Assembly: GCA_016926395.1 (NCBI GenBank)
Contig: JAFGOT010000012.1
Coordinates: 1 to 43,595 of the forward strand
Reading direction: 5' to 3'
Length of the DNA stretch: 43,595 bases
From: Candidatus Woesearchaeota archaeon
GTDB lineage: Archaea > Nanobdellota > Nanobdellia > Woesearchaeales > SKGA01
A model generated the notes under the pieces. It ran no database searches. It worked only from the letters and a program-made list of their open reading frames with translations, and was not told where the DNA came from. This document shows, piece by piece, positions 4,334-22,059 of the stretch (position 1 is the first letter of the stretch; the number at the start of each line of letters is the position of its first letter). The position numbers were made by a program, and so were the translations under genes.

Positions 4334-5026
4334 ACTCATTATGCTAAGAGCAGTGTGCAAGAAACCAACCTTTATCATCCTACCAAAAGAAGTTCCAACA
4401 AATTTAATATCGCCACTTCGTTTTAATTCTCTATAAGTTTCCATTGGATAATCAGAACTTGTTAATTGCTCAATAGCAGCAATCCCACTGACATGAAGTT
4501 CATATTCAGGATAATCAACAGCACCACATTCAATAGTAGTAATTTTCTTATCTTCAAGTTTTAGATATGCAACAGGAGTTCCATTAAGATAAAAATTAAA
4601 ACTATCATAAGTAAAAGGAATATAGCTAGGAAGCTCTAAACCAATTAAATCATTCTCTTCAGTTAAAAATGAACAAAGACTAGCACCAACTAAAGTGTTA
4701 AATATCGAGCTAACATTGGAGTTTTCTTCTAAAGCTGACAAATTTACATCACTAACATCAACTTCCGCCATAATATCTTCCCAAGCAGAAGGAGGAATAG
4801 CATCCAAATCACAATCAGTAGCTAAAGGAGCAATAGCAGCTAAGTTTTCATCAGTTAATTTGCCACTTTCAAGAAGCTGAGTTACCTGCATAGACTCCTC
4901 GGGAGTTAAGTTACAATGAGCAAGAACGTCTTCTCCAACGGCTAAAACGCCTGGAATGATAGCAACTAATAATAAAAACCAAATAAACAATTTTTGTGAC
5001 ATAAACAAATTACTAAGAATGAACAT
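4322..5026 (-). CDS. Secreted or membrane-anchored protein with a possible SCP2-like C-terminal domain
   Basis: N-terminal signal or TM segment, acidic linker, and a C-terminal pattern (LKLEDKKITTIECG...PEYELHV...YRELKRSGDIKFVG...KVGF) resembling SCP2-like domains, judged by eye. Confidence 0.6.
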   Translation of the reverse strand: MFILSNLFMSQKLFIWFLLLVAIIPGVLAVGEDVLAHCNLTPEESMQVTQLLESGKLTDENLAAIAPLATDCDLDAIPPSAWEDIMAEVDVSDVNLSALEENSNVSSIFNTLVGASLCSFLTEENDLIGLELPSYIPFTYDSFNFYLNGTPVAYLKLEDKKITTIECGAVDYPEYELHVSGIAAIEQLTSSDYPMETYRELKRSGDIKFVGTSFGRMIKVGFLHTALSIMSLFN

Positions 5027-5079
5027 TTATAAATTTAACTTAGGAAAGTTTAAATGCAAACTAAAAGTTAAGAATCTAT

Positions 5080-6660
5080 ATGAAAGCACCTTTCGACTTG
5101 ACAAAGATAAGCGATAAGCCAGGATGTTATATTTACAAAGACATAACTGACACAATAATCTATGTTGGAAAGGCAAAAAATCTTAAAAAAAGAGTATCAA
5201 GTTATTTCTCTAAAAATTACTTAGATCTTAAAACAGCACAATTAGTTGAGAATATAAAAAGTGTAGAGACAATAATAACAAAGAACGAAGTTGAAGCACT
5301 TCTTTTAGAATCTAATCTTATACGACAACATAAACCAAGATACAATATTGATTTAAAATATGGGATGAGATATGCATGGATTGTTCTAACAAACGAAGAA
5401 TATCCTCGATTAATAACAGCAAGAAGTAGAAATCTAGACGGAGAATATTTTGGACCATTTGTTAGCGGAAACCTCAGACGAGTACTTCTTGATGTCCTGC
5501 GTAAAAAATTCTACATACGAACATGTCGTGTTCTTCCAAAAAAACCATGTCTTAGATATCACATCGGAGTATGTAAAGCACCGTGTGTTAAAAAACAAAC
5601 ACAAAAAGAATACGAAGAAAACGTAGAACAGGTAAGAACATATCTTCGAGGGAAGAATAAAGAACTCATAAAAGACTTGCAAAAACAGATGAAAGAAGCC
5701 GCTGCAAAAACAAACTTTGAATTGGCAAAAATACATAAAGAACAAATTGATTCACTAGAATACTTACAAAATCAAATGCTCGTTGAAAACTCCAGACTTG
5801 AAGAACAAGATGTTATTAACTACAAAAAATACACATCACAAAAAGATAACAAAGATTACGTAGAAGTAATAGTGTTTGGATTTAGACGAGGAGTCTTGTC
5901 GCAAAAACAAACATTCACAATAGCAGATGAAGAAAATGCACTTGAAGAGTTCATAAAAAGATTCTATGAAGTTGAAAAACCACCAAGTGAAATAATAATC
6001 CCTCATGAAATAGAAGATAATAGTTTAGAAAAATACTTAGAAGAAATATCAGGACACAAAGTCAGCTTAACCATCCCTCAAAGAGGGATGAAAAAAGAAC
6101 TATTAGAGTTAGTTGATAAAAACATTGATGAAGAAATAAGCTACGCAGAAAGTTTAGCCTTTGAAATAAAAGACAATCTAAATCTTGAGAAACCTGTTAG
6201 AACGATAGAATGTTTTGACATCTCACACTTAGGCGGAACAAACACCGTAGCATCAATGGTTCATTTCAAAGACGGCAAACCAGTAAAAAGCAAATACAGA
6301 AAGTTTAAGATACAAACAGTAGAGGGAATAGATGACTTTAGATCAATGAACGAAGTTATTACAAGACGATACTCCCGTTTGAAAAAAGAAAAAAGAGAAT
6401 ACCCAGATTTAATACTCATTGATGGAGGATCTCAACAAGTAGCATTTGCAAAAAAAGCACTCGATGCAATCGGTGTAAATATTCCAATGGTTGGACTTGC
6501 TAAAAAGTTTGAAGAAATATATTTTCCAGACAAAAAAGACCCAATAAGATTTGATAAAAATTCAAACATGATGAAGGTGTTCATAAATGCAAGAGATGAA
6601 ACACACAGGTTTGGAGTAACATTTCAAAGAAGTTTACGCTCAAAAGAGCTTAAAAAGTAA
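5080..6660 (+). CDS. uvrC: Excinuclease ABC subunit C, lacking the C-terminal (HhH)2 domain
   Basis: GIY-YIG (PGCYIY...IIYVGKAKNLKKRV), Cys cluster, UVR helix, RNase H-like domain (ECFDISH, DDF, LIDGG, RDETHRF). Confidence 0.95.
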   Translation: MKAPFDLTKISDKPGCYIYKDITDTIIYVGKAKNLKKRVSSYFSKNYLDLKTAQLVENIKSVETIITKNEVEALLLESNLIRQHKPRYNIDLKYGMRYAWIVLTNEEYPRLITARSRNLDGEYFGPFVSGNLRRVLLDVLRKKFYIRTCRVLPKKPCLRYHIGVCKAPCVKKQTQKEYEENVEQVRTYLRGKNKELIKDLQKQMKEAAAKTNFELAKIHKEQIDSLEYLQNQMLVENSRLEEQDVINYKKYTSQKDNKDYVEVIVFGFRRGVLSQKQTFTIADEENALEEFIKRFYEVEKPPSEIIIPHEIEDNSLEKYLEEISGHKVSLTIPQRGMKKELLELVDKNIDEEISYAESLAFEIKDNLNLEKPVRTIECFDISHLGGTNTVASMVHFKDGKPVKSKYRKFKIQTVEGIDDFRSMNEVITRRYSRLKKEKREYPDLILIDGGSQQVAFAKKALDAIGVNIPMVGLAKKFEEIYFPDKKDPIRFDKNSNMMKVFINARDETHRFGVTFQRSLRSKELKK

Positions 6661-6719
6661 AATAAGGCTTTTTAAGTCGTTCTAAAAGTTTAATAATTAG
6701 TTTATCTATAAGTAATAAT

Positions 6720-6983
6720 ATGAGCGGGGAAGATTTAAGACCCGCTAGTGAATGGGAACCCCCCGCAGGAATGATGATAGCGGGCACCGTACTTTTGGCT
6801 GCAGGCATATCCAACAGCACCACGGGGGTGTGCTGTATCGGATTGTTAATGATACTGATAGCTATTTTCTGGCTTCTAAAAATAAGAATGAAAAAACTAG
6901 ACCCAAATGTGAAAGAATTATCTCCAAGAAACGATTTAGAACAAAGAGATAAACACAGCCATAGCAGCAGGATTAGTGAGTAA
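6720..6983 (+). CDS. Small membrane protein
   Basis: 87 aa with two hydrophobic segments. Confidence 0.55.
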   Translation: MSGEDLRPASEWEPPAGMMIAGTVLLAAGISNSTTGVCCIGLLMILIAIFWLLKIRMKKLDPNVKELSPRNDLEQRDKHSHSSRISE

Positions 6984-11090: not shown

Positions 11091-12065
11091 TTGGCAATGA
11101 ACTTAAATATAGATAGACCCATTGAAAGAGAAGAAGAAGACAAATTATATTATAATGAACTATATGCAGGAAAGCTAGAACAAATCATTTCTAAAAACAA
11201 AGATAAATGCATCAAAGTTGGACTATTTGCCAAGTTTGGATCTGGAAAAACAAGTACAATAAATATCCTGTGGCAAAGATTGAAGAACAAAAGAAAAGTA
11301 ACTTTAAAAAAGAAAAATAAACGATTCATCCATGTAAAATCATTATGGGATTATTCTCCCGAAGATATTCTAAAAAAAATTATTGTTTCAGTAGATAAAC
11401 AAGCAAATTTAAAACTCAATTTAAACAAAGAAATAAATTCTGAAACAACATATATAGATGAGAAAGAAAAACGAATCAACTTCTTAACATACATAACGAT
11501 TTCTCTTTTCGCATTAATTGGAATCTCATTAATCGGAAAAAACACTGCAACAATAAATATGAATAAACCTATTAATGATATTGCAACAGTGGCTCTGAGC
11601 CATTCAATGACAATACCAAGTGCAACACTCCAATTATTAATAGGTTTGATTACAACGGGCTTAGCAGTTATGTTTGCAGTTAACTCATTTAAGAAACAAA
11701 CTAGAAGACCTCCTTCTACAAGTTATGATTTTGAAGATTATTGGATACAAATTCTTAAAGCAGCAAATCAAAAAGGAATAAAAGAAATAACATTAGTAGT
11801 AGATGACTTAGATAGATGCAAACCAGAAATAGTAAATGGGATATTTGGAAAGCTAAATGCAATCGTTGAGCAAACGGAAGAAAGATCCAAAATAAGTATG
11901 AACTTAATAATTCCATTTTCACTAGCAGATTATTTATTAATCGATGGAGATAAAGAAATCGAACGACTAAAATTCAATTATAAAAAATTCTTTGATATAA
12001 TAATAGACATGCCAGAACTAGGACCATTAGAACTTCAGAGGTTAGATGAACATGAAAATAAGTGA
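11091..12065 (+). CDS. KAP-family P-loop NTPase, N-terminal part
   Basis: Walker A GLFAKFGSGKTS, two TM segments inserted in the NTPase, Walker B LVVDDLDRC, and KKFFDIIIDMP; TTG start. Confidence 0.85.
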   Translation: MAMNLNIDRPIEREEEDKLYYNELYAGKLEQIISKNKDKCIKVGLFAKFGSGKTSTINILWQRLKNKRKVTLKKKNKRFIHVKSLWDYSPEDILKKIIVSVDKQANLKLNLNKEINSETTYIDEKEKRINFLTYITISLFALIGISLIGKNTATINMNKPINDIATVALSHSMTIPSATLQLLIGLITTGLAVMFAVNSFKKQTRRPPSTSYDFEDYWIQILKAANQKGIKEITLVVDDLDRCKPEIVNGIFGKLNAIVEQTEERSKISMNLIIPFSLADYLLIDGDKEIERLKFNYKKFFDIIIDMPELGPLELQRLDEHENK

Positions 12066-14079
12066 AGAAAAACTAACCCAAAGTATTTCTAAGTACGGCA
12101 CAATAATAAAAAATCCTCGAAACTGGAGAATGTATCGAAATTTTGTATCCACTCAAGCAGACATAAAAATAAAACAACATGAATTAATGAAAAAACGAAT
12201 ACCTCAAATATACAACATAACAAATCCTGAAGATAAAATTTGTTTTTGTACATATATACTATTTCAATTTCCAGAATTAGCAGAAAAAATCAGAAAATTT
12301 CCTCAATATCAAAAGCAAATAAGGGAAATAGCAGAGCATCTTAAAGATTCAAACGACAACAAATTTGACCCTAATAACAAGATAGTTACACGAAACATGA
12401 ACTCACTCTTCAAATCTATTGAAACACCATATTTTGAAAATTCAAATGAAGCAAATATTCCAGAATATTACAAGAAAAAGCCTTCTGAAGAAGAATTTCT
12501 AAGTTTTATTGAACAAACCTACATGGACGTGCCAACAGGTCTTGAATGGGATTTTTTTATGCTGAATAATATATTAACAACAACTAACATGCTTTTAATA
12601 CAACAAACATATAGCAACAACAGAGATTCAAACATTGACAAAACACTAAAAATATTAAATAACAATTGGAATCATTACTTTCAATCAGTTGATGAATATA
12701 TGAAGTACATTCTTATTTCAGGTTTTGATTTGTATAATTTTATCAAAATATTTGTAGAGTGTAATCAAGACATCGAGAATCCAGAAATAATTTCTAAATA
12801 CCAAAAAGAAGCATTAACACTACTAGTTAAATGGATTCAAAATGAGCGGTTTCTTAATATCTTTGTTGAACAAATAATGTTTAAAATGTACATGGCAACA
12901 GATTTAGGCGAATTTGCAAGATCTGATGCTAAAATCCTAGAAAAAAATCGCTGGAATATAGCAAAGGAAGAAAAATTCTACGAACTATTTAACCAAATAA
13001 TTCAAAAGAATTGGAGAATAATGCAATCCAATCAAGACGATAATAAATTATATTCATTATTAATAAGTACATGTAGATACAACAATACTTTGCTAAAATT
13101 ATTTCACATCCCCACAGCAGTTAAAGAATATATGGATGATAGAAAAATCAATAAAGCACTATGGAGTGTGGGACCCCTAGGACAATTTTCTAATGAAGAC
13201 CAAAAGAACATATCTCAATTTCCAGCACTAACAGTTGAATTAAAGTATCGACTAAGTTTAATGAAAGAAAAAGAATCCGAATATCAATTTCCAGATCAAT
13301 TAAGTAAAGTTCGAATAGAAAAAAAACTAATTCAAGTTTATGACATTATTAACACCAACAACCCACCTGTATACATAAGAAGACAAATAATTGGAGAGTT
13401 AATACGAAAAGCAGAACAAGTATTAAGAGATCAAAAAAACAAAAATTACATCAATCCAGTTCTTGAAGGTTTAGAATCGATTGCATTAATGATTATGTAC
13501 CTAGAAAACCAAGAAACACAAAGAAACTCAAAAAACGAAAATACAGACGAATTTATTTTACAAGAAATACAATTTCCAAGAATAGTAATCGAACTTATCA
13601 GAAGCCAAACAGAACCAATAAATAAAATCGAACTAAAAAATAAAATATCGCAAACAATATTTTTAGATAAAACACAAGATCAAATGATAAAAGACTTAAT
13701 TCAATACAAAGAAAAATTACGTCCAAAAGAAAAAGAAAGCAAACGCAATACGCCTAACAAAAAAGAAACCATAAAACGAGCGGTGAAATATTTATTTGAA
13801 AATGTAGACTACGATGAACAATCGAATGGACAAATAGGGACAGGTCATTTCAAAACAAACGCAACTCAACTATTCTATGAAGAAATAACAACAGAAAAAC
13901 AACTAAAAACAGCAGAAAGAAAATATAAGAAAATATTCAAACAAAACAAAGATAAAATATTAACAATGATCATTATAATTGGAAATGAGTTCGGAGAACA
14001 ATTTGTTGAAAAAACTATTTCAATGAGAGAAGCCGCGACTGAAAGAGTTGCATTTATTGATGAATCGGAATTCAGTTAA
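12046..14079 (+). CDS. Probable C-terminal continuation of the KAP NTPase with a large helical region
   Basis: Begins with the KAP-typical NPR...R..N motif (KNPRNWRMYRN); 20-nt overlap with the upstream ORF in the +1 frame. Confidence 0.7.
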   Translation: MNMKISEEKLTQSISKYGTIIKNPRNWRMYRNFVSTQADIKIKQHELMKKRIPQIYNITNPEDKICFCTYILFQFPELAEKIRKFPQYQKQIREIAEHLKDSNDNKFDPNNKIVTRNMNSLFKSIETPYFENSNEANIPEYYKKKPSEEEFLSFIEQTYMDVPTGLEWDFFMLNNILTTTNMLLIQQTYSNNRDSNIDKTLKILNNNWNHYFQSVDEYMKYILISGFDLYNFIKIFVECNQDIENPEIISKYQKEALTLLVKWIQNERFLNIFVEQIMFKMYMATDLGEFARSDAKILEKNRWNIAKEEKFYELFNQIIQKNWRIMQSNQDDNKLYSLLISTCRYNNTLLKLFHIPTAVKEYMDDRKINKALWSVGPLGQFSNEDQKNISQFPALTVELKYRLSLMKEKESEYQFPDQLSKVRIEKKLIQVYDIINTNNPPVYIRRQIIGELIRKAEQVLRDQKNKNYINPVLEGLESIALMIMYLENQETQRNSKNENTDEFILQEIQFPRIVIELIRSQTEPINKIELKNKISQTIFLDKTQDQMIKDLIQYKEKLRPKEKESKRNTPNKKETIKRAVKYLFENVDYDEQSNGQIGTGHFKTNATQLFYEEITTEKQLKTAERKYKKIFKQNKDKILTMIIIIGNEFGEQFVEKTISMREAATERVAFIDESEFS

Positions 14080-14602: not shown

Positions 14603-14809
14603 TTAAAGAAATGGTGACCCCAGGAGGGCCGGATTATTGACATCACGTCGAGGATGAACCTCTGAAATCCCAAAAAGAGCCACTTTCAACAGCTGATTGA
14701 TTGTCTTGGATATGTTCACACCTTGTTTTTTGAGGTTTTCGTGGGCCTCATAATCAAGATTAATATGTATCCTCACAGCTTTGTTTTTACTGTTCTTTTT
14801 TGGTCTCAT
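14603..14809 (-). CDS. Integrase N-terminal fragment (intN) with a ribbon-helix-helix-like domain
   Basis: The ORF runs through the att repeat (LLGSP is encoded by the repeat) and is in frame with intC across the repeat; RIHINLD...LKKQGVNISKTINQLL resembles an RHH fold. Confidence 0.85.
   Translation of the reverse strand: MRPKKNSKNKAVRIHINLDYEAHENLKKQGVNISKTINQLLKVALFGISEVHPRRDVNNPALLGSPFL
14611..14627 (-). repeat. att site, tRNA-distal copy
   Basis: ATGGTGACCCCAGGAGG is identical to 21981-21997 (tRNA-Arg 3' end). Confidence 0.92.
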
Positions 14810-16228: not shown

Positions 16229-16261
16229 TATTTGGTTAATAGATTGTTAATATTTGGTTAT
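16229..16261. promoter_or_regulatory. Three 11-bp tandem repeats between divergent genes (candidate operator)
   Basis: TATTTGGTTAA / TAGATTGTTAA / TATTTGGTTAT. Confidence 0.55.
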
Positions 16262-16583
16262 ATATTTAAAAGTTACTATTTCAAGTATGAACACATATGC
16301 AGGAAGAAACATACCTCAACTAAATACTCAAATAGAGCTTATTTCATGGCTAAAACGTGGAAAGTATAGGCGGGATGTTTTTGAACAAGTTAAAGACAAA
16401 ACAACACCTGCAGAAATTGTTGCAAGATTATCCAAACAAAGAAAATCAAGTAGTGACTACGTGCAAGTTTCTAGAGCTTTGAGAGAATTAGAATTACAAG
16501 GACTAATTAAATGTTTAAACCCGAAAGAAAAAACTGGAGGACTATATGAGAAAACATCCAAAGGAACTAAAATAATTATTTGA
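16254..16583 (+). CDS. Winged helix-turn-helix transcriptional regulator (start may be ATG 16287)
   Basis: TPAEIVARL...QVSRALRELELQGLIKCLNP...GGLYEKTSKG matches an archaeal wHTH pattern. Confidence 0.8.
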   Translation: MVIYLKVTISSMNTYAGRNIPQLNTQIELISWLKRGKYRRDVFEQVKDKTTPAEIVARLSKQRKSSSDYVQVSRALRELELQGLIKCLNPKEKTGGLYEKTSKGTKIII

Positions 16584-16816
16584 GTTTCATAACACATCAC
16601 TTCTTTGTGAATTATGATTTCTATATAATCAAATTTTCAAAAACCGTGGAAAATAAGTTAACAAATAAAAAGAACTTTCTTCAAAAAACCGAAGGGAGGT
16701 AGTGCTTTTTCCTCACACTATTATTTGCATAAAACCGAGTAGGCTCACATTTTTGAGATTCAATTTTTTGAACGGAACAACAAAAGATTTATAATATATA
16801 TAAAATAAATTAAATC

Positions 16817-17089
16817 ATGGTTAAACAAACTATGAAATCTGAAAATTTAATCTATATTTTTAGATTACTAGGTATGTTAATCATCACAGTAATTATGAGA
16901 TGTTTGTTCAGCAAAACCAACCAAGAATTTTATGATTACATATCCTATGTGTTTTCAATAGGGATATTATTATTAATATTATTACCAAATCTTCATGAGT
17001 TTAAATTTTGGGGAATTAGTGCAAAAGGAAATAATCAACAAATAGACGACACAACTAAAATAATATTGGTGAACGAAAATGGCAAATAA
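16817..17089 (+). CDS. Small two-TM membrane protein
   Basis: Two hydrophobic segments; overlaps the next ORF by 11 nt. Confidence 0.65.
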   Translation: MVKQTMKSENLIYIFRLLGMLIITVIMRCLFSKTNQEFYDYISYVFSIGILLLILLPNLHEFKFWGISAKGNNQQIDDTTKIILVNENGK

Positions 17090-17405
17090 AATAAATTTTA
17101 AAGAAGGAAGTATTAATTTTTGGATTCCGGAAAACGTATTTGACTTTGACGATAACCAAACACACATACTAGTAAATCAAGGAAATTTAGAAGGCTCAAT
17201 ATTTATTGTTAAGGATGGGGATAATAAACTTAAATTCTTTCATGTATTGCTTGGCAAAGGAAGAACAGATGTTGTTATAGATGTACAAGAGTTATTAAAA
17301 AGTGAAAAACACATGATTACTGCAACGTGGAGCATAAGTAAAAAAGAAATCAATCTTTACATTGATGGTGGGAAAAAACACAACACTACCAAAATAACGT
17401 ATTAA
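17079..17405 (+). CDS. Small beta-sandwich protein, LamG/concanavalin-like
   Basis: EGSINFWI and HMITATW...INLYIDG resemble LamG-like strands. Confidence 0.6.
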   Translation: MANKINFKEGSINFWIPENVFDFDDNQTHILVNQGNLEGSIFIVKDGDNKLKFFHVLLGKGRTDVVIDVQELLKSEKHMITATWSISKKEINLYIDGGKKHNTTKITY

Positions 17406-18850
17406 TCACAACTGACAACCGGTTTAAAACCTAATTTTTCTTCGTATTTTTCTATCATTAAATTCATAACTTCTTCTTGATGCGAAATCCCAACCATGAC
17501 TGAATCATGAATAGGAATTGCAGGAATATTTTTTGTTACTAACTCATCTAAAATTTCCAACATTATTGATGAATCTTCAAATTGTAAATCTAAACCAACT
17601 CCGGTAAAGAAAAATTCTTCAATATTTGGATGTGCTGTTCTAAATGCAGAGATTATTTCCCTTATTCTTACGTGTGTACTAATCTCATCGCCAAATTCTT
17701 CCTTTAGTTCATGATTAGAACCAAACTCTCTTGCTATTGCTTTTATTGCAGACTCTTCATCGCCACTATTGAGCATAATATTTGTTACTGCTTTGTTTAG
17801 TTTTCTTGTTCCTTCATCTCCAAAAGAATAAAGGTCTGTTTCAGAAGGATAAATATTTTTTCTATGATAAAGCATACGCAAATGCAATGTGCTATAATCA
17901 GGTTCAACGACAGATTCATCATTAATTTTTATTTCATGACGAATAACTTTTGGCAAACCTTGAACCTCACTTCCATACAATCGACCACCTTTTGTAAAGC
18001 TTGATTGATTAAATACACGTTTGATTGATAAGTGTCTTAATGAAATCGTATGAGTAAAGGGGTAATAGTTATTTACTAGTGAATCTAATATCTCATTTCG
18101 TGTGGTAGTCTGTGAATCATATCGTATATAACGTGAATCTGTATTGAAATGAGTGTATAGATGAATCCGTGTATTAAACAATAACTGCGAGTAATCTTCG
18201 TCATTCATCTGAACCGTGACTTGTTGATTTAAAATGAATTCATTGTATCTTTGAATTTTTCTCCTCATCTCATCAAGTTCAGGAGTATTTTCATAGTCAA
18301 CTAATTTTTTATGTTCATCTTTTAACTGAATAGGTTCAACAAAACCAGAATCATCAATATCCAAAGCATCGTTAGAAGAAAACCGTGGAAGTAAATTTCT
18401 AAGTTTAGTCATAGAATCAACACGAGAGTACCTTGATTTATTTGCAAAGCTAAAACCTTTCGCAGAAAGAATAAGATAATCAGTTTCAATTAATTTTTTT
18501 ATTATTGATTCAATAACAATGTTGTAAGTAAAAAATTTAGGGACATAACGAGAACGCTTATCAGAGTAATAATTTTTATTGAACGAAACTGCAACTGGAC
18601 GTTCACAACGCCAAGCAAGAAAAAAATTAGTCAGTATACAATTAAGGGCACTACGTTTAAGTTCTTGTTGATAACCTGAAGACAAGCCAAGTTCATCAAA
18701 CAAAGTATCAACAACAGAAACAAAGTTTTCATCATCAGAATAAGAACGATAATTTAAACGACGAGCACTATCAAAATATAAAGCCTCAAAATGTTTTTGT
18801 TGCAAATCTAAAAGAGATTGCTCTTCCTCAAAATCAAATTGCCAATCCAT
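17402..18850 (-). CDS. Minimal polymerase of the family A DNA polymerase / T7-type RNA polymerase superfamily (TV-Pol-like)
   Basis: In order: GGRLY (DxxGR-like), VVEPDYSTLH (motif A Asp), RKLNK (motif B RxxxK), LQFEDS, IPIHDS (motif C); no exonuclease domain evident. Confidence 0.8.
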   Translation of the reverse strand: MDWQFDFEEEQSLLDLQQKHFEALYFDSARRLNYRSYSDDENFVSVVDTLFDELGLSSGYQQELKRSALNCILTNFFLAWRCERPVAVSFNKNYYSDKRSRYVPKFFTYNIVIESIIKKLIETDYLILSAKGFSFANKSRYSRVDSMTKLRNLLPRFSSNDALDIDDSGFVEPIQLKDEHKKLVDYENTPELDEMRRKIQRYNEFILNQQVTVQMNDEDYSQLLFNTRIHLYTHFNTDSRYIRYDSQTTTRNEILDSLVNNYYPFTHTISLRHLSIKRVFNQSSFTKGGRLYGSEVQGLPKVIRHEIKINDESVVEPDYSTLHLRMLYHRKNIYPSETDLYSFGDEGTRKLNKAVTNIMLNSGDEESAIKAIAREFGSNHELKEEFGDEISTHVRIREIISAFRTAHPNIEEFFFTGVGLDLQFEDSSIMLEILDELVTKNIPAIPIHDSVMVGISHQEEVMNLMIEKYEEKLGFKPVVSCD

Positions 18851-20891
18851 TTTGTAATTCTTCCAACTCTTTTTTTGTTTGTTCTAATTCAGCTCTCTTG
18901 TGTGGATGTTGCTTAACATCATATTCAAGAGTTTTTAGTTTTTTTGTTAACTTTTCAATATTTTCTTTTTTAGTTATTTCTGCTTGACAATCAGCACATA
19001 ATTCGTTTCCTAATGAACAATAACTACATTTTGAACATGAATGATGGTACTTAACAAAAATCTTTAACAACATTTGTTTATCTAAGTAAATGAATTGTTT
19101 TTTTGCTCGATGACATAAACGATTACACTCAGCGCGAGTTTGTTCTAAAACTGGCTTTGGTGATGCAACAACAACAATTTCTGATTCACTATCACTAACA
19201 CACCTTGCAACTTGTCTGATAATTGTTCTTGAAAAGTCCGTATTACTTGATGAGTCCCTCATAGATTTAAGTACAAAACTTGTTAATACGCGTTTATCAT
19301 CAATGTGCAAGTATCCTTCTGCATCGGTTATTTCTGCAGGACCGTGAGGATTTGGTGTCACACCCAAAATAGAACAGATTATTTCAGTTAAATCTTGAAT
19401 ATCATCTTTGTTTGGAGCAAGATTTTTATCTTCATAATAATTATCAAGTGCACTAGAAATGTTATTAAGATGACGAATACCATATTTTGTTTCTGTTGCA
19501 TCAATATTAAATTCTTTAATTGCTTCATAATTATATGTAGGTCTAGTAATTGTCAACTCATCATTTAAAAAACTTAAAACAGGTAAATTTGTTTGACCAA
19601 ATTCTCTTGCCACAACTCGTTTATCATCACTATTAAAGAAAAATAATTGCACTTTATCAACGTCAGCAATATCGCCTTTCCAATTACAAGAATCACACAC
19701 TAAAGAGTCATCTTCTCTTGAAAGAAACGACTTACATTGAGGACACAAAAAATCTGTTTGCTTCATCAATATCCCTTTATCATACAAAATATCCAACATA
19801 TATAATATTGATTGTATCTTTTCGTTATTACTTGAAAATTGACCATCAAGTTTATCAAAGAAAATTAACTTAAGGAGAGATAATGCATTTTTATAATAAT
19901 TAGGTCTTTCATTATTGAAATCTGATAAGGACAACTCTTCAGGAAGAGGAAATTCTTTTAATTCTACATAATCTTCAAAAATGTCTTCAATAAGTTTTGT
20001 TAATACTTCAACCTCATCAAGAGCAACTTTTCTTCTGAAAAAAATTCTTCCCTCATCTCGGTTAATACCACAATTTAATTTGAAATCATCAAGAATATGT
20101 TCTGCATAAAGACTGACTTCCGCTCCAACTTCTAATGCTGAACGATAAATTGTACTCATCATAAGATTTCCTTCAAACCTTGATGTTAATCGTTCAGAAC
20201 CAACGTCATCACCATTCAAAATGTGAATGGAACAGCTAGATAATCGATTTGATTTTTCCTTCCAGAGTTTTATTTGAGTATCATGAAATCGTAAGATAAG
20301 AAAATCAATATCAAAAACAGAAGAGAATAAATCTTTAACTTCATCTGCTAAATCCATATTTTTTGTAATAGCAAAAAATAATGAAGTTCCTTCAACATGA
20401 ATAAATAAACAGGAATCTAAAAACTCAACTTCTTTATTATTTCCTTTCTTATCTTTATAGGTAAATACACCCAAGGAATCATATTCAAAAATTCTAAAAA
20501 TTCCTTTTTGATAAATTCTTCTTAAAACAGGTTCATCATCACTCAGTTCATCAGTATCGCGTAAATTAGCTAAAGCATCATCATCAAGGTCAACCATAGA
20601 AGATAAATTATTCTCAACTATTTTTTCATTAATATGCTCCACATACGAATCAACAACAGAAGTAGACCGATAAAGATAAAGCGTTATAGGCCCTTCAAAA
20701 ATACAAATTTCTTTCAACCAATCGACATCTGCATCTGAAAGAGAATTGACTAATTCAATACGTAAATCTTGTGCTTTTTTTGTTGGAGTCCGTTTAATTT
20801 CATACTTATCCAAAAATAAATCAAGTAAACGTGTGGGAACATATTCATCTAAGAACCGCTCCACTTCATCAGTGTCATAAGTCTCTACCAT
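18834..20891 (-). CDS. Large protein with a Zn ribbon and a C-terminal restriction-endonuclease-like (PD-(D/E)xK-type) domain
   Basis: CPQC...CDSC; GPAEITDAE...TSFVLKS followed by an alpha/beta pattern; terminal Cys cluster CSKCSYC...CADC; overlaps the polymerase start by 17 nt. Confidence 0.55.
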   Translation of the reverse strand: MVETYDTDEVERFLDEYVPTRLLDLFLDKYEIKRTPTKKAQDLRIELVNSLSDADVDWLKEICIFEGPITLYLYRSTSVVDSYVEHINEKIVENNLSSMVDLDDDALANLRDTDELSDDEPVLRRIYQKGIFRIFEYDSLGVFTYKDKKGNNKEVEFLDSCLFIHVEGTSLFFAITKNMDLADEVKDLFSSVFDIDFLILRFHDTQIKLWKEKSNRLSSCSIHILNGDDVGSERLTSRFEGNLMMSTIYRSALEVGAEVSLYAEHILDDFKLNCGINRDEGRIFFRRKVALDEVEVLTKLIEDIFEDYVELKEFPLPEELSLSDFNNERPNYYKNALSLLKLIFFDKLDGQFSSNNEKIQSILYMLDILYDKGILMKQTDFLCPQCKSFLSREDDSLVCDSCNWKGDIADVDKVQLFFFNSDDKRVVAREFGQTNLPVLSFLNDELTITRPTYNYEAIKEFNIDATETKYGIRHLNNISSALDNYYEDKNLAPNKDDIQDLTEIICSILGVTPNPHGPAEITDAEGYLHIDDKRVLTSFVLKSMRDSSSNTDFSRTIIRQVARCVSDSESEIVVVASPKPVLEQTRAECNRLCHRAKKQFIYLDKQMLLKIFVKYHHSCSKCSYCSLGNELCADCQAEITKKENIEKLTKKLKTLEYDVKQHPHKRAELEQTKKELEELQNGLAI

Positions 20892-21081: not shown

Positions 21082-21981
21082 TTAACTAATACTATTTGAT
21101 GCTGTTTTCTCCTTAAGCAGTAATACCTCACTAAGTTTCTTTGCAACTTGCTTATACCAAAACTCTGCTTGTTGATTTTTAGCTAAATAATGATTTGCTC
21201 CAATACTGTTTGAAGCACGGCCTTGTATAAAATCTGCTACTCCTTCCGGTACTCCATTATACAGTAAAAAGTTATATTGCCACTTACGAAGATACTTAGC
21301 ATTAAACGTAGCTTTTTTGTTATATACATCTTGTAATCTGTTATTACTTCCAGTTATTCTTTTCAGTTTCTCATAAACAAATAATGGTAAAAAGACTGTG
21401 TTAATATTCTTAGTTTTACGATTATTAGCAACCGAGTATGACACAAAACCGTCGTTTATCTTAAACTTATTAACATCAAACGTTTTTAAGAAATCTAAAC
21501 ATTCAACAAAACGGATTCCTGATGTAGCAAGTATCAAAAATATCAGTTCTAAATCTTCGTTTTCTTTAAGAGCCGTATAACAACTTAACACATCTTCATT
21601 ACTCGGAACATAATAATCATTACCATCCCTACCTAACTTCAAAACCTTACGATAACGCACCAATACATCGTCTTCAAGCAACTCCAACTCTTCACAGAAG
21701 TTTAGATATACCCTACAAGCTTTAACCTTATTTCGTCTTCCTGACGGTTCTGATACAATATATTGACTAAGTTCGAACGGACTATCAAAGGACTTATCTC
21801 TAAAGAATCTGTTAAAATAAGAACGAATTCCTTTAACGTAACCAGTACCGAATTTAGTACTAAGCCAAGAGATAAAATCATCTCCTCTAACAAAATTTAG
21901 GCAGTTAACGTGGGCCTCTTTGTGATGCTCATTTTGAGAATTAAGAGTTTCAACAGCTCTCCGTGATGAATGAGAAATATA
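21082..21981 (-). CDS. Tyrosine integrase C-terminal fragment (intC), SSV-type
   Basis: The frame is open from the att repeat to the stop; catalytic set SGIR...K...KYLRK...QGR...NHY (R-K-KxxR-R-Y). Confidence 0.92.
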   Translation of the reverse strand, partial: YISHSSRRAVETLNSQNEHHKEAHVNCLNFVRGDDFISWLSTKFGTGYVKGIRSYFNRFFRDKSFDSPFELSQYIVSEPSGRRNKVKACRVYLNFCEELELLEDDVLVRYRKVLKLGRDGNDYYVPSNEDVLSCYTALKENEDLELIFLILATSGIRFVECLDFLKTFDVNKFKINDGFVSYSVANNRKTKNINTVFLPLFVYEKLKRITGSNNRLQDVYNKKATFNAKYLRKWQYNFLLYNGVPEGVADFIQGRASNSIGANHYLAKNQQAEFWYKQVAKKLSEVLLLKEKTASNSIS

Positions 21982-21997
21982 TGGTGACCCCAGGAGG
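21981..21997 (-). repeat. att site, tRNA-proximal copy
   Basis: Identical to 14611-14627; covers the last 16 nt of the tRNA plus 1 nt. Confidence 0.92.
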
Positions 21998-22059
21998 ATT
22001 CGAACCCCCGACCTGCCGGTCCGAAGCCGGCCGCTCTATCCAAGCTAAGCCATGGGGCC
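21982..22059 (-). tRNA. tRNA-Arg(UCG), intronless, CCA encoded
   Basis: Acceptor GGCCCCA/TGGGGTC, anticodon arm GCCGG-CTTCGGA-CCGGC, T-loop GGTTCGAATCC, 3' ACCA. Confidence 0.97.

Follow-up and report, generated by a model that had tools for sequence, protein, structure and literature searches.

A minimal family-A DNA polymerase and an overlapping gene for a predicted RdgC-like protein on an SSV-type integrated element of a woesearchaeal genome

When a polymerase gene and the gene of a possible nuclease overlap on a mobile element, do the two form a system, and what might it do? The question is raised by a stretch of 43,595 nucleotides from Candidatus Woesearchaeota archaeon (assembly GCA_016926395.1, contig JAFGOT010000012.1, positions 1 to 43,595; hereafter the window). 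An element integrated there carries on its minus strand the gene of a 685-aa protein, P0001 (18834..20891, an open reading frame (ORF) with domains assigned by fold and alignment), and that of a 482-aa minimal family-A polymerase, P0002 (17402..18850, an ORF assigned by fold and motifs). An earlier account made from the sequence alone, hereafter the sequence-only reading, had proposed them as a new two-gene system acting in defence or in replication. We conclude that this is not a new two-gene defence system. The novelty lies in the domain of life of the host, in the type of recombinase, and in the status of a known kind of polymerase as the only polymerase of its element. The interpretation that we favour, with a probability of roughly 55%, is that the polymerase is the replication enzyme of the element, with the 685-aa protein as an accessory for handling DNA that is specific to this lineage and occupies a variable slot.

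We first describe the pair and the element. Read directly from the sequence, the ATG of P0002 sits 17 nt ahead of the TGA of P0001, so that the two genes overlap on the same strand (18834..18850, minus strand), in an arrangement of translational coupling. The polymerase start is supported by a 50%-identical homologue, P0004, with which the initial residues align. The pair spans 3,490 bp, i.e. 47% of the 7,370 bp of the element. Both the overlap and the share of about one half had been correctly described in the sequence-only reading. The borders of the element are two copies of an exact 17-nt direct repeat, ATGGTGACCCCAGGAGG, at 14611 and 21981, and 7,370 bp is the length between them. The left copy (attL core, 14611..14627) is an exact copy of the 3' end of a tRNA-Arg gene. 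The right one (attR core, 21981..21997, given by the repeat match and the tRNA call) is the 3' end of tRNA-Arg(TCG) itself, the integration target, at 21982..22059 on the minus strand (ARAGORN; Rfam RF00005, 59.8 bits). The catalytic part of an SSV-type integrase, Int(C), is encoded at 21082..21687 on the minus strand (Pfam PF16795, Phage_integr_3, E = 4.8e-40). At the other end of the element, also on the minus strand, a 68-aa N-terminal fragment of the split integrase, Int(N) (14603..14809), has a frame that runs across the attachment site (att) and stops two codons past it, in host DNA. Joining position 21980 to 14611 in silico gave a single open frame made of the 68-aa ORF, att and the catalytic part. 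Because the joined ends restore one continuous frame, we conclude that the integrase gene was split by integration. The element shares with SSV-type (type I) archaeal integrative elements an att inside the integrase gene, the splitting of this gene and a tRNA target, and it is flanked by a duplicated tRNA-Arg 3' end. Genes for TFB and for a Cbf5-type pseudouridine synthase lie outside it on its flanks. The host is a small-genome archaeon (assembly of 1.02 Mb, completeness 82.5%). Within the element, the integrase, the 685-aa gene and the polymerase follow each other in this order on one strand, the last two being the overlapping pair. The ORF list and the Pfam matches show no replication or nucleic-acid-synthesising enzyme on the element other than the 482-aa polymerase, and Pfam searches of the element proteins revealed no P-loop gene.

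The identity of P0002 rests on its fold and its motifs. The protein has no match in Pfam, NCBIfam or PADLOC, and it matches phrog_4756, a group of unknown function, with E = 2.4e-50. An AlphaFold (AF2) model built on an alignment of 19 relatives has a mean predicted local distance difference test (pLDDT) score of 79, with values above 90 across most of the C-terminal core. Its best 50 Foldseek matches in the PDB are all PolA or mitochondrial RNA polymerase structures (E ~2e-5, probability 1.0). Eleven residues are invariant in the alignment of the 19 relatives: G289, R290, E316, D318, D339, Y341, R349, K353, N361, D449 and S450. Of these, E316 and D318 fall in a DYSxxHxR motif, R349 and K353 form an RxxxK motif, and D449 and S450 belong to an HDS motif. 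The palm metal-binding aspartates are D318 (DYS, motif A) and D449 (HDS, motif C), carried in the model by strands 312-315 and 444-454. A beta-hairpin with modelled strands 277-280 and 288-292 holds the invariant R290 and G289 and the nearly invariant R278, and the fingers carry D339 together with the RxxxK pair. Ahead of the hairpin the model places helices 190-207 and 217-235, putative counterparts of the two antiparallel helices that form the thumb of TV-Pols; for the related divPolA2 enzymes, the authors report no homologous thumb (PMC11348598). A Pfam match to an exonuclease is lacking. Taken together, the model and the motifs identify P0002 as a minimal family-A polymerase of the TV-Pol/divPolA2 type with a predicted intact active site. 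The earlier description of a minimal PolA/T7-type polymerase is thus confirmed, for a kind of enzyme that had already been described.

Two described groups are particularly close. The first is divPolA2, a divergent family-A polymerase of barbaviruses and of Vibrio and Aeromonas phages (Yutin et al. 2024, PMC11348598). P0002 matches the divPolA2 reference AUR84708 in BLASTP with E = 2e-13 over residues 274-474. Searches with tblastn retrieved relatives in 242 phage records (115 from Rheinheimera, plus Vibrio and Aeromonas phages), and these phage relatives are the divPolA2 group of that study; further relatives occur on the alphaproteobacterial replicons of Paracoccus, Thioclava and Neorhizobium. 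P0002 and divPolA2 are homologous across the catalytic core, lack an exonuclease domain and have variable neighbourhoods. They differ in that the phages carry a regular PolB beside divPolA2, which is thought to be non-replicative, whereas P0002 is the sole polymerase of a 7,370-bp archaeal element. The second group, the TV-Pols, is defined by an arginine in the hairpin, two aspartates in the palm, and fingers with an aspartate and RxxxK (Iyer, Abhiman and Aravind 2008, PMC2579912). TV-Pols have been described from bacteria, a plastid and viruses, on recombinase-linked mobile elements, and were predicted to be primase-polymerases (PMC2579912). P0002 resembles them in its minimal PolA core with the hairpin arginine, the palm aspartate pair and the fingers aspartate and RxxxK, in having an extra N-terminal domain, and in the linkage to an integrase or resolvase on small elements: its own relatives adjoin site-specific recombinases, a resolvase in one case and tyrosine integrases in others. 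It differs from them in having an archaeal host and an SSV-type integrase as the recombinase. When the P0002 profile (A1) was compared with a 506-aa transposase-adjacent gene of Microcystis phage LMM01, whose TV-Pol status is uncertain, the alignment was not significant, being confined to motifs and having an hhalign probability of 0.4%. Direct comparison of sequences places P0002 with divPolA2, and its palm, hairpin and fingers show the features by which TV-Pols are defined.

A third comparison concerns polymerases that work with a partner. CcPol-MP-Cch2 has been described from SCCmec (Bebel et al. 2020, PMC7581432) and PolA-SSB primases from elements of Bacillota (Rice 2023, PMC10061031). 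CcPol, a truncated PolA, can prime the synthesis of DNA once a DNA-binding subunit is joined to it, and CcPol-MP is the sole biochemically proven PolA-type primase (PMC7581432, PMC10061031). The statement in the sequence-only reading that it knew of no described system with a PolA/T7-type core used in this way overlooks TV-Pol (PMC2579912), CcPol-MP and PolA-SSB (PMC7581432, PMC10061031), as well as divPolA2 (PMC11348598). Like the elements with CcPol-MP and PolA-SSB, the woesearchaeal integrative element encodes a family-A polymerase in truncated form together with a co-expressed DNA-binding protein of variable sequence. The variable partners of the PolA-SSB primases (PMC10061031) are echoed by the variable genes upstream of P0002-type polymerases. 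In contrast to the small downstream OB-fold protein of those systems, P0001 lies upstream, has 685 aa and is RdgC-like; the operon of the element has no helicase, and P0001 is not conserved with the polymerase. The ORF list of the window shows no same-strand gene after the polymerase. Because there is neither a small OB-fold partner nor a helicase, P0002 falls outside the definition of CcPol-MP.

What kind of protein is P0001? It has no family match in Pfam (E up to 1), PADLOC or NCBIfam, and among PHROGs its coiled-coil tail is the only part with a match; its two homologues have no Pfam match either. Searches of PDB sequences with single proteins and with profiles gave nothing useful. The structure model has a pLDDT of 65 overall, is good at residues 10-220 and ranges from 55 to 79 across the region from 497 to 628. 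The layout that emerges is an RdgC-like domain (residues ~64-311), a winged helix-turn-helix with a Cys4 ribbon (C383/386/399/402), a possible restriction-endonuclease-like (REase-like) domain (497-628) and a coiled coil (633-684). The RdgC-like assignment was recovered in three structure libraries. The N-terminal ~250 residues match E. coli RdgC (2owl) in Foldseek with E = 5.5e-5 and probability 1.0, and in VIA-align with Z = 10.0 and a root-mean-square deviation of 5.5 over 216 aligned residues, where it takes first place by a clear margin; in BFVD, many phage proteins annotated as RdgC-like also match. Lower in the list come kinetochore Iml3/CENP-L and lambda RexA (8twq, E = 1.2e-2, probability 0.51), which share the RdgC fold (PMC11077077). 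P0001 has this fold in common with RdgC and RexA (PDB 2owl, 8twq; PMC11077077), and it differs from them in standing outside the RdgC sequence family (no Pfam RdgC match) and in joining this domain to zinc ribbons, a coiled coil and a possible REase-like domain, a combination not listed for either. The three-way alignment of the family shows two invariant Cys4 clusters, C383/386/399/402 and C619/622/632/635, and E520, D523, K542 and D552 are invariant in all three homologues. Residues 497-628 align with AF1548 (Z = 7.6, 108 residues) and with the catalytic domain of AspBHI (Z = 7.5, 133 residues), both of which we take to be restriction-endonuclease-like domains; both scores lie within the background stated for the aligner. 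The absence of a Walker A motif from P0001 indicates that it is not a helicase. We regard it as firmly predicted by the model that P0001 is a DNA-binding protein of the RdgC-like kind which also has zinc ribbons and a coiled coil, and as possible that it contains a restriction-endonuclease-like domain. The label 'nuclease-like' from the sequence-only reading thus finds middling support in the fold of residues 497-628, but the largest confident domain of the protein is RdgC-like and DNA-binding.

We next compared the distributions of the two genes. The P0001 family is very small. When 1.84 billion representative proteins were searched exhaustively with phmmer, two relatives came up, P0025 (33% identity) and P0026 (25%), both full-length, bringing the family to three members. 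Contig collections of viruses, genomes and metagenomes yielded none on scanning, two word-indexed searches recovered the query alone, and 400 genomes of the phylum gave no full-length match, nearly all matches there being to the coiled-coil tail. The closest homologue, P0025, lies on a 6.9-kb contig (L003) where no gene resembles the polymerase. We considered a hidden polymerase among the 301-aa and 358-aa genes of this contig and rejected it: they showed no relation to the polymerase profile, and we discount a weak BLAST match (E = 1e-4) as compositional. The contig of P0026 is too short to judge its context.

We turn to the polymerase side. The closest homologue, P0004 (50% identical), is found on contig L001, which holds a sister element with an SSV-type integrase fragment, the polymerase, a 100-aa protein (4760-5062, minus strand) and an Int(N) fragment whose ORF is 52% identical to that at 14603..14809. 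The core common to both elements consists of the polymerase, the integrase and a 109-aa protein. In L001, the slot between integrase and polymerase is filled by genes of 330 and 322 aa, for which BLASTP and profile comparison revealed no similarity to the P0001 family; an Atlas search with the 330-aa protein gave no informative match, and the 322-aa gene overlaps the polymerase by 4 nt. We then compared 24 polymerase loci, 21 of them searched with profiles and three with called genes. The P0001-family profile had no match among the ORFs of the 21 loci, and the called genes of the other three include nothing of the size or kind of P0001. The gene upstream of the polymerase varies between small ORFs, the 322-aa gene, a ParB-like gene and a tyrosine integrase, and is often coupled to it. 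On a 53.7-kb viral contig (L045), a ParB-like gene at 5766-6848 (TIGR00180, E = 2.8e-10, below the curated cut-off) abuts the polymerase start with a 1-nt overlap; judging from its sequence, its product is a further DNA-binding protein coupled to this polymerase family. When 110 neighbour proteins of the 24 loci were tallied by Pfam family, no recurrent partner emerged, the commonest families being PhoH (4) and phage integrase (3). At L055 (2856-5128), a polymerase homologue is preceded on its own strand by genes for a PLD-like protein (PF13091) and an HNH endonuclease (PF01844). A recurrent theme of nuclease partners was considered and discarded: L055 is a single case, and the tally of 110 proteins shows no recurrence.

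Within current data, P0001 and P0002 are not a conserved pair. The notion of a conserved two-gene system finds no support in them: no relative of P0001 occurs at 24 polymerase loci, the L001 slot holds unrelated genes, and L003 has no polymerase. The check on homologues that had been set beforehand found no co-occurrence outside this locus in the data at hand. The polymerase itself turned up in 4 of the 400 other genomes searched from the phylum, while the 10 genomes from the same genus had none, and this sparse occurrence indicates that it is mobile. Other phylum homologues, at L013 8431-9821, at L014 1961-3136 and on L007, lie among housekeeping genes without an integrase, and some phylum polymerase matches are split in two ORFs or have in-frame TAA codons. 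The homologues of these three contigs look like decaying remnants of lost elements.

How could the two proteins then act? In the interpretation that we favour, the most likely task of the 482-aa polymerase is to prime and copy the element once it has excised as a circle. We infer such priming and extension of DNA because P0002 is the sole polymerase, because its relatives are linked to integrases or resolvases, and because CcPol provides a precedent. P0001 would be a non-obligate partner in the variable slot between integrase and polymerase, co-expressed through the 17-nt overlap. It most likely binds, and perhaps nicks or opens, the DNA of the element so that the polymerase can start, a role suggested by its RdgC-like DNA-encircling domain, its zinc ribbons and its possible nuclease fold. 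Alternatively, it might shield replication intermediates from host recombination.

Several observations weigh against this interpretation. No origin was identified and no helicase found on the element. The divPolA2 polymerases of large phages have variable neighbourhoods and were judged unlikely to be replicative by their authors (PMC11348598); by analogy, a repair or other role is possible for P0002. In two other genomes of the phylum, homologues of the polymerase are isolated among housekeeping genes, which implies that the polymerase can persist without any partner. The REase-like fold of P0001 is at background (Z = 7.5), and its canonical nuclease motif is incomplete: where an acidic residue or Gln would be canonical, two positions ahead of K542, all three homologues have a hydrophobic V or I. 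Finally, co-occurrence seen from the side of P0001 is a small sample, one relative with usable context.

The main rival is that P0001 is independent cargo for exclusion or defence, i.e. a Rex-like DNA sensor with a nuclease-like domain, that it sits in a variable hotspot flanked by the integrase and the polymerase, and that the overlap reflects operon packing. Such cargo would explain why the L001 slot is filled by unrelated genes and why the closest homologue of P0001 occurs without a polymerase. It is also in line with the N-terminal fold that P0001 has in common with lambda RexA, a DNA-binding protein of phage exclusion (8twq; PMC11077077), but the RexA match is weak (E = 1.2e-2, probability 0.51) and a RexB-like membrane partner was not found. 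The possible Mrr-like fold in P0001, and structural neighbours in the Atlas that include STAND and TIR proteins bearing Mrr_cat (at low TM-score), also speak for it; the nuclease motif is, however, non-canonical. PADLOC matched none of the three members of the P0001 family, and the context on L003 is uninformative, with a sub-threshold HEPN match in one neighbour gene. On balance we consider independent cargo of the Rex type unlikely, while ranking it ahead of the other alternatives.

Stricter forms of the replication proposal make P0001 indispensable. It would then be a dedicated initiator that binds or nicks the origin, in an obligate complex with the polymerase, the whole working as a replicase like CcPol-MP. 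The translational coupling of the genes, the DNA-encircling RdgC-like fold and the absence of another DNA-binding replication factor from the element speak for such a complex, and PolA-type primases are known to need a separate DNA-binding subunit of highly variable sequence (PMC7581432, PMC10061031). However, the P0001 family exists without the polymerase and the polymerase without P0001, and L001 has no P0001 equivalent detectable by sequence or profile. We therefore hold an obligate complex to be quite improbable. The replication option of the sequence-only reading survives as a more likely setting than defence, but a conserved pair is unsupported, as the genes do not co-occur outside this locus in the data at hand. 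A bolder version, to which we would also assign a low probability, casts P0001 as a DNA-loading or nicking subunit, functionally analogous to MP but composed of an RdgC-like ring and an REase-like domain, that makes the polymerase a self-sufficient initiator-replicase for a small archaeal circle. If it were true, non-homologous DNA-binding partners (the 330-aa, 322-aa and ParB-like proteins) would plug into the same translationally coupled slot, and this would be a new modular way of starting DNA replication, with the element as the first replicon of Archaea to be based on PolA.

The least likely possibility, which we regard as very remote, is defence by the two genes together, with the nuclease-like protein being activated by a nucleic-acid product that the polymerase synthesises or detects: an analogy with CBASS, retrons and defence-associated reverse transcriptases and the gene overlap itself are all that speak for it, and it lacks positive support elsewhere, since P0001 and the polymerase do not co-occur at other loci, PADLOC has no defence model matching P0001, P0002 or their homologues, the polymerase is a core gene common with L001 while the putative effector is not, the pair sits in a self-integrating element otherwise devoid of a replicase, and the 24 polymerase neighbourhoods have no recurrent nuclease partner.

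It is worth placing these results in the context of archaeal mobile elements, on which family-A polymerases are almost unknown. Surveys of these elements report PolB primed by protein or by RNA, archaeo-eukaryotic primase-polymerases and Rep proteins of rolling-circle replication, and the 'hot spring' groups are the only PolA reported from archaeal genomes (PMC10201439, PMC11348598). An enzyme of the divPolA2/TV-Pol type as the sole polymerase of an archaeal element with an SSV-type integrase is a third setting for this little-studied class. With one polymerase, one integrase and few small genes, the element is a compact test case that could show whether such enzymes can prime and replicate DNA unaided. 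P0001 adds an undescribed architecture, made of a predicted RdgC-like ring, zinc ribbons and a possible REase-like domain, with three known members. The overlap of a polymerase gene with a nuclease-like gene is in itself insufficient to call a system.

The remaining features of the element concern its regulation and its smaller genes. An A/T-rich leader with a TATA-like sequence, CTATATATT, is read ~20 nt before the start codon of P0001 (20892..20925, minus strand). Because of this upstream element, the 685-aa gene and the polymerase gene may form their own transcription unit from a putative CTATATATT promoter. We also considered that integration severs the polymerase operon from the integrase promoter, and make no such claim, the pair's own promoter being at least as likely. 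The 109-aa conserved core gene (16254..16583, plus strand), which encodes a probable small DNA-binding regulator, is 70.5% identical to L001 4760-5062, and its product has weak PHROG matches to transcriptional regulators (E = 1.5e-3). This protein and its 100-aa counterpart in L001 (70%) are better conserved between the two elements than the polymerase (50%) or the integrase (32%), and it may be the key regulator or DNA-binding protein of the element. Close to its start, a divergent intergenic or promoter region contains 3.5 copies of an 11-nt unit, TATTTGGTTAA (16229..16267, TRF score 48). Downstream, in the 233-nt non-coding stretch 16584-16816, AAAACCG occurs three times with a spacing of ~45 nt, a pattern chosen post hoc. 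The TATTTGGTTAA repeats and the AAAACCG copies are candidate operator or origin sequences.

Two further genes may bear on the nature of the element. The 356-aa protein P0003 (15147..16217, minus strand) has, in its translation, an N-terminal hydrophobic, signal-like segment and also a Cys-rich segment; searches of Pfam, PHROG and NCBIfam found no family match for it, and on sequence grounds it is a candidate for cargo or an envelope protein. A 108-aa ORF at 17079-17405 has a sub-threshold match to concanavalin-A-like lectins (E = 1.8e-4). Both might be envelope or surface proteins, in which case the element might be a small virus and not a plasmid. Just outside attL, at 11091-14079, a 677-aa ORF follows and overlaps a gene for a P-loop NTPase of the KAP family (PF07693, E = 8.5e-10); the two may represent one split gene, or else defence-type genes adjoining the integration site.

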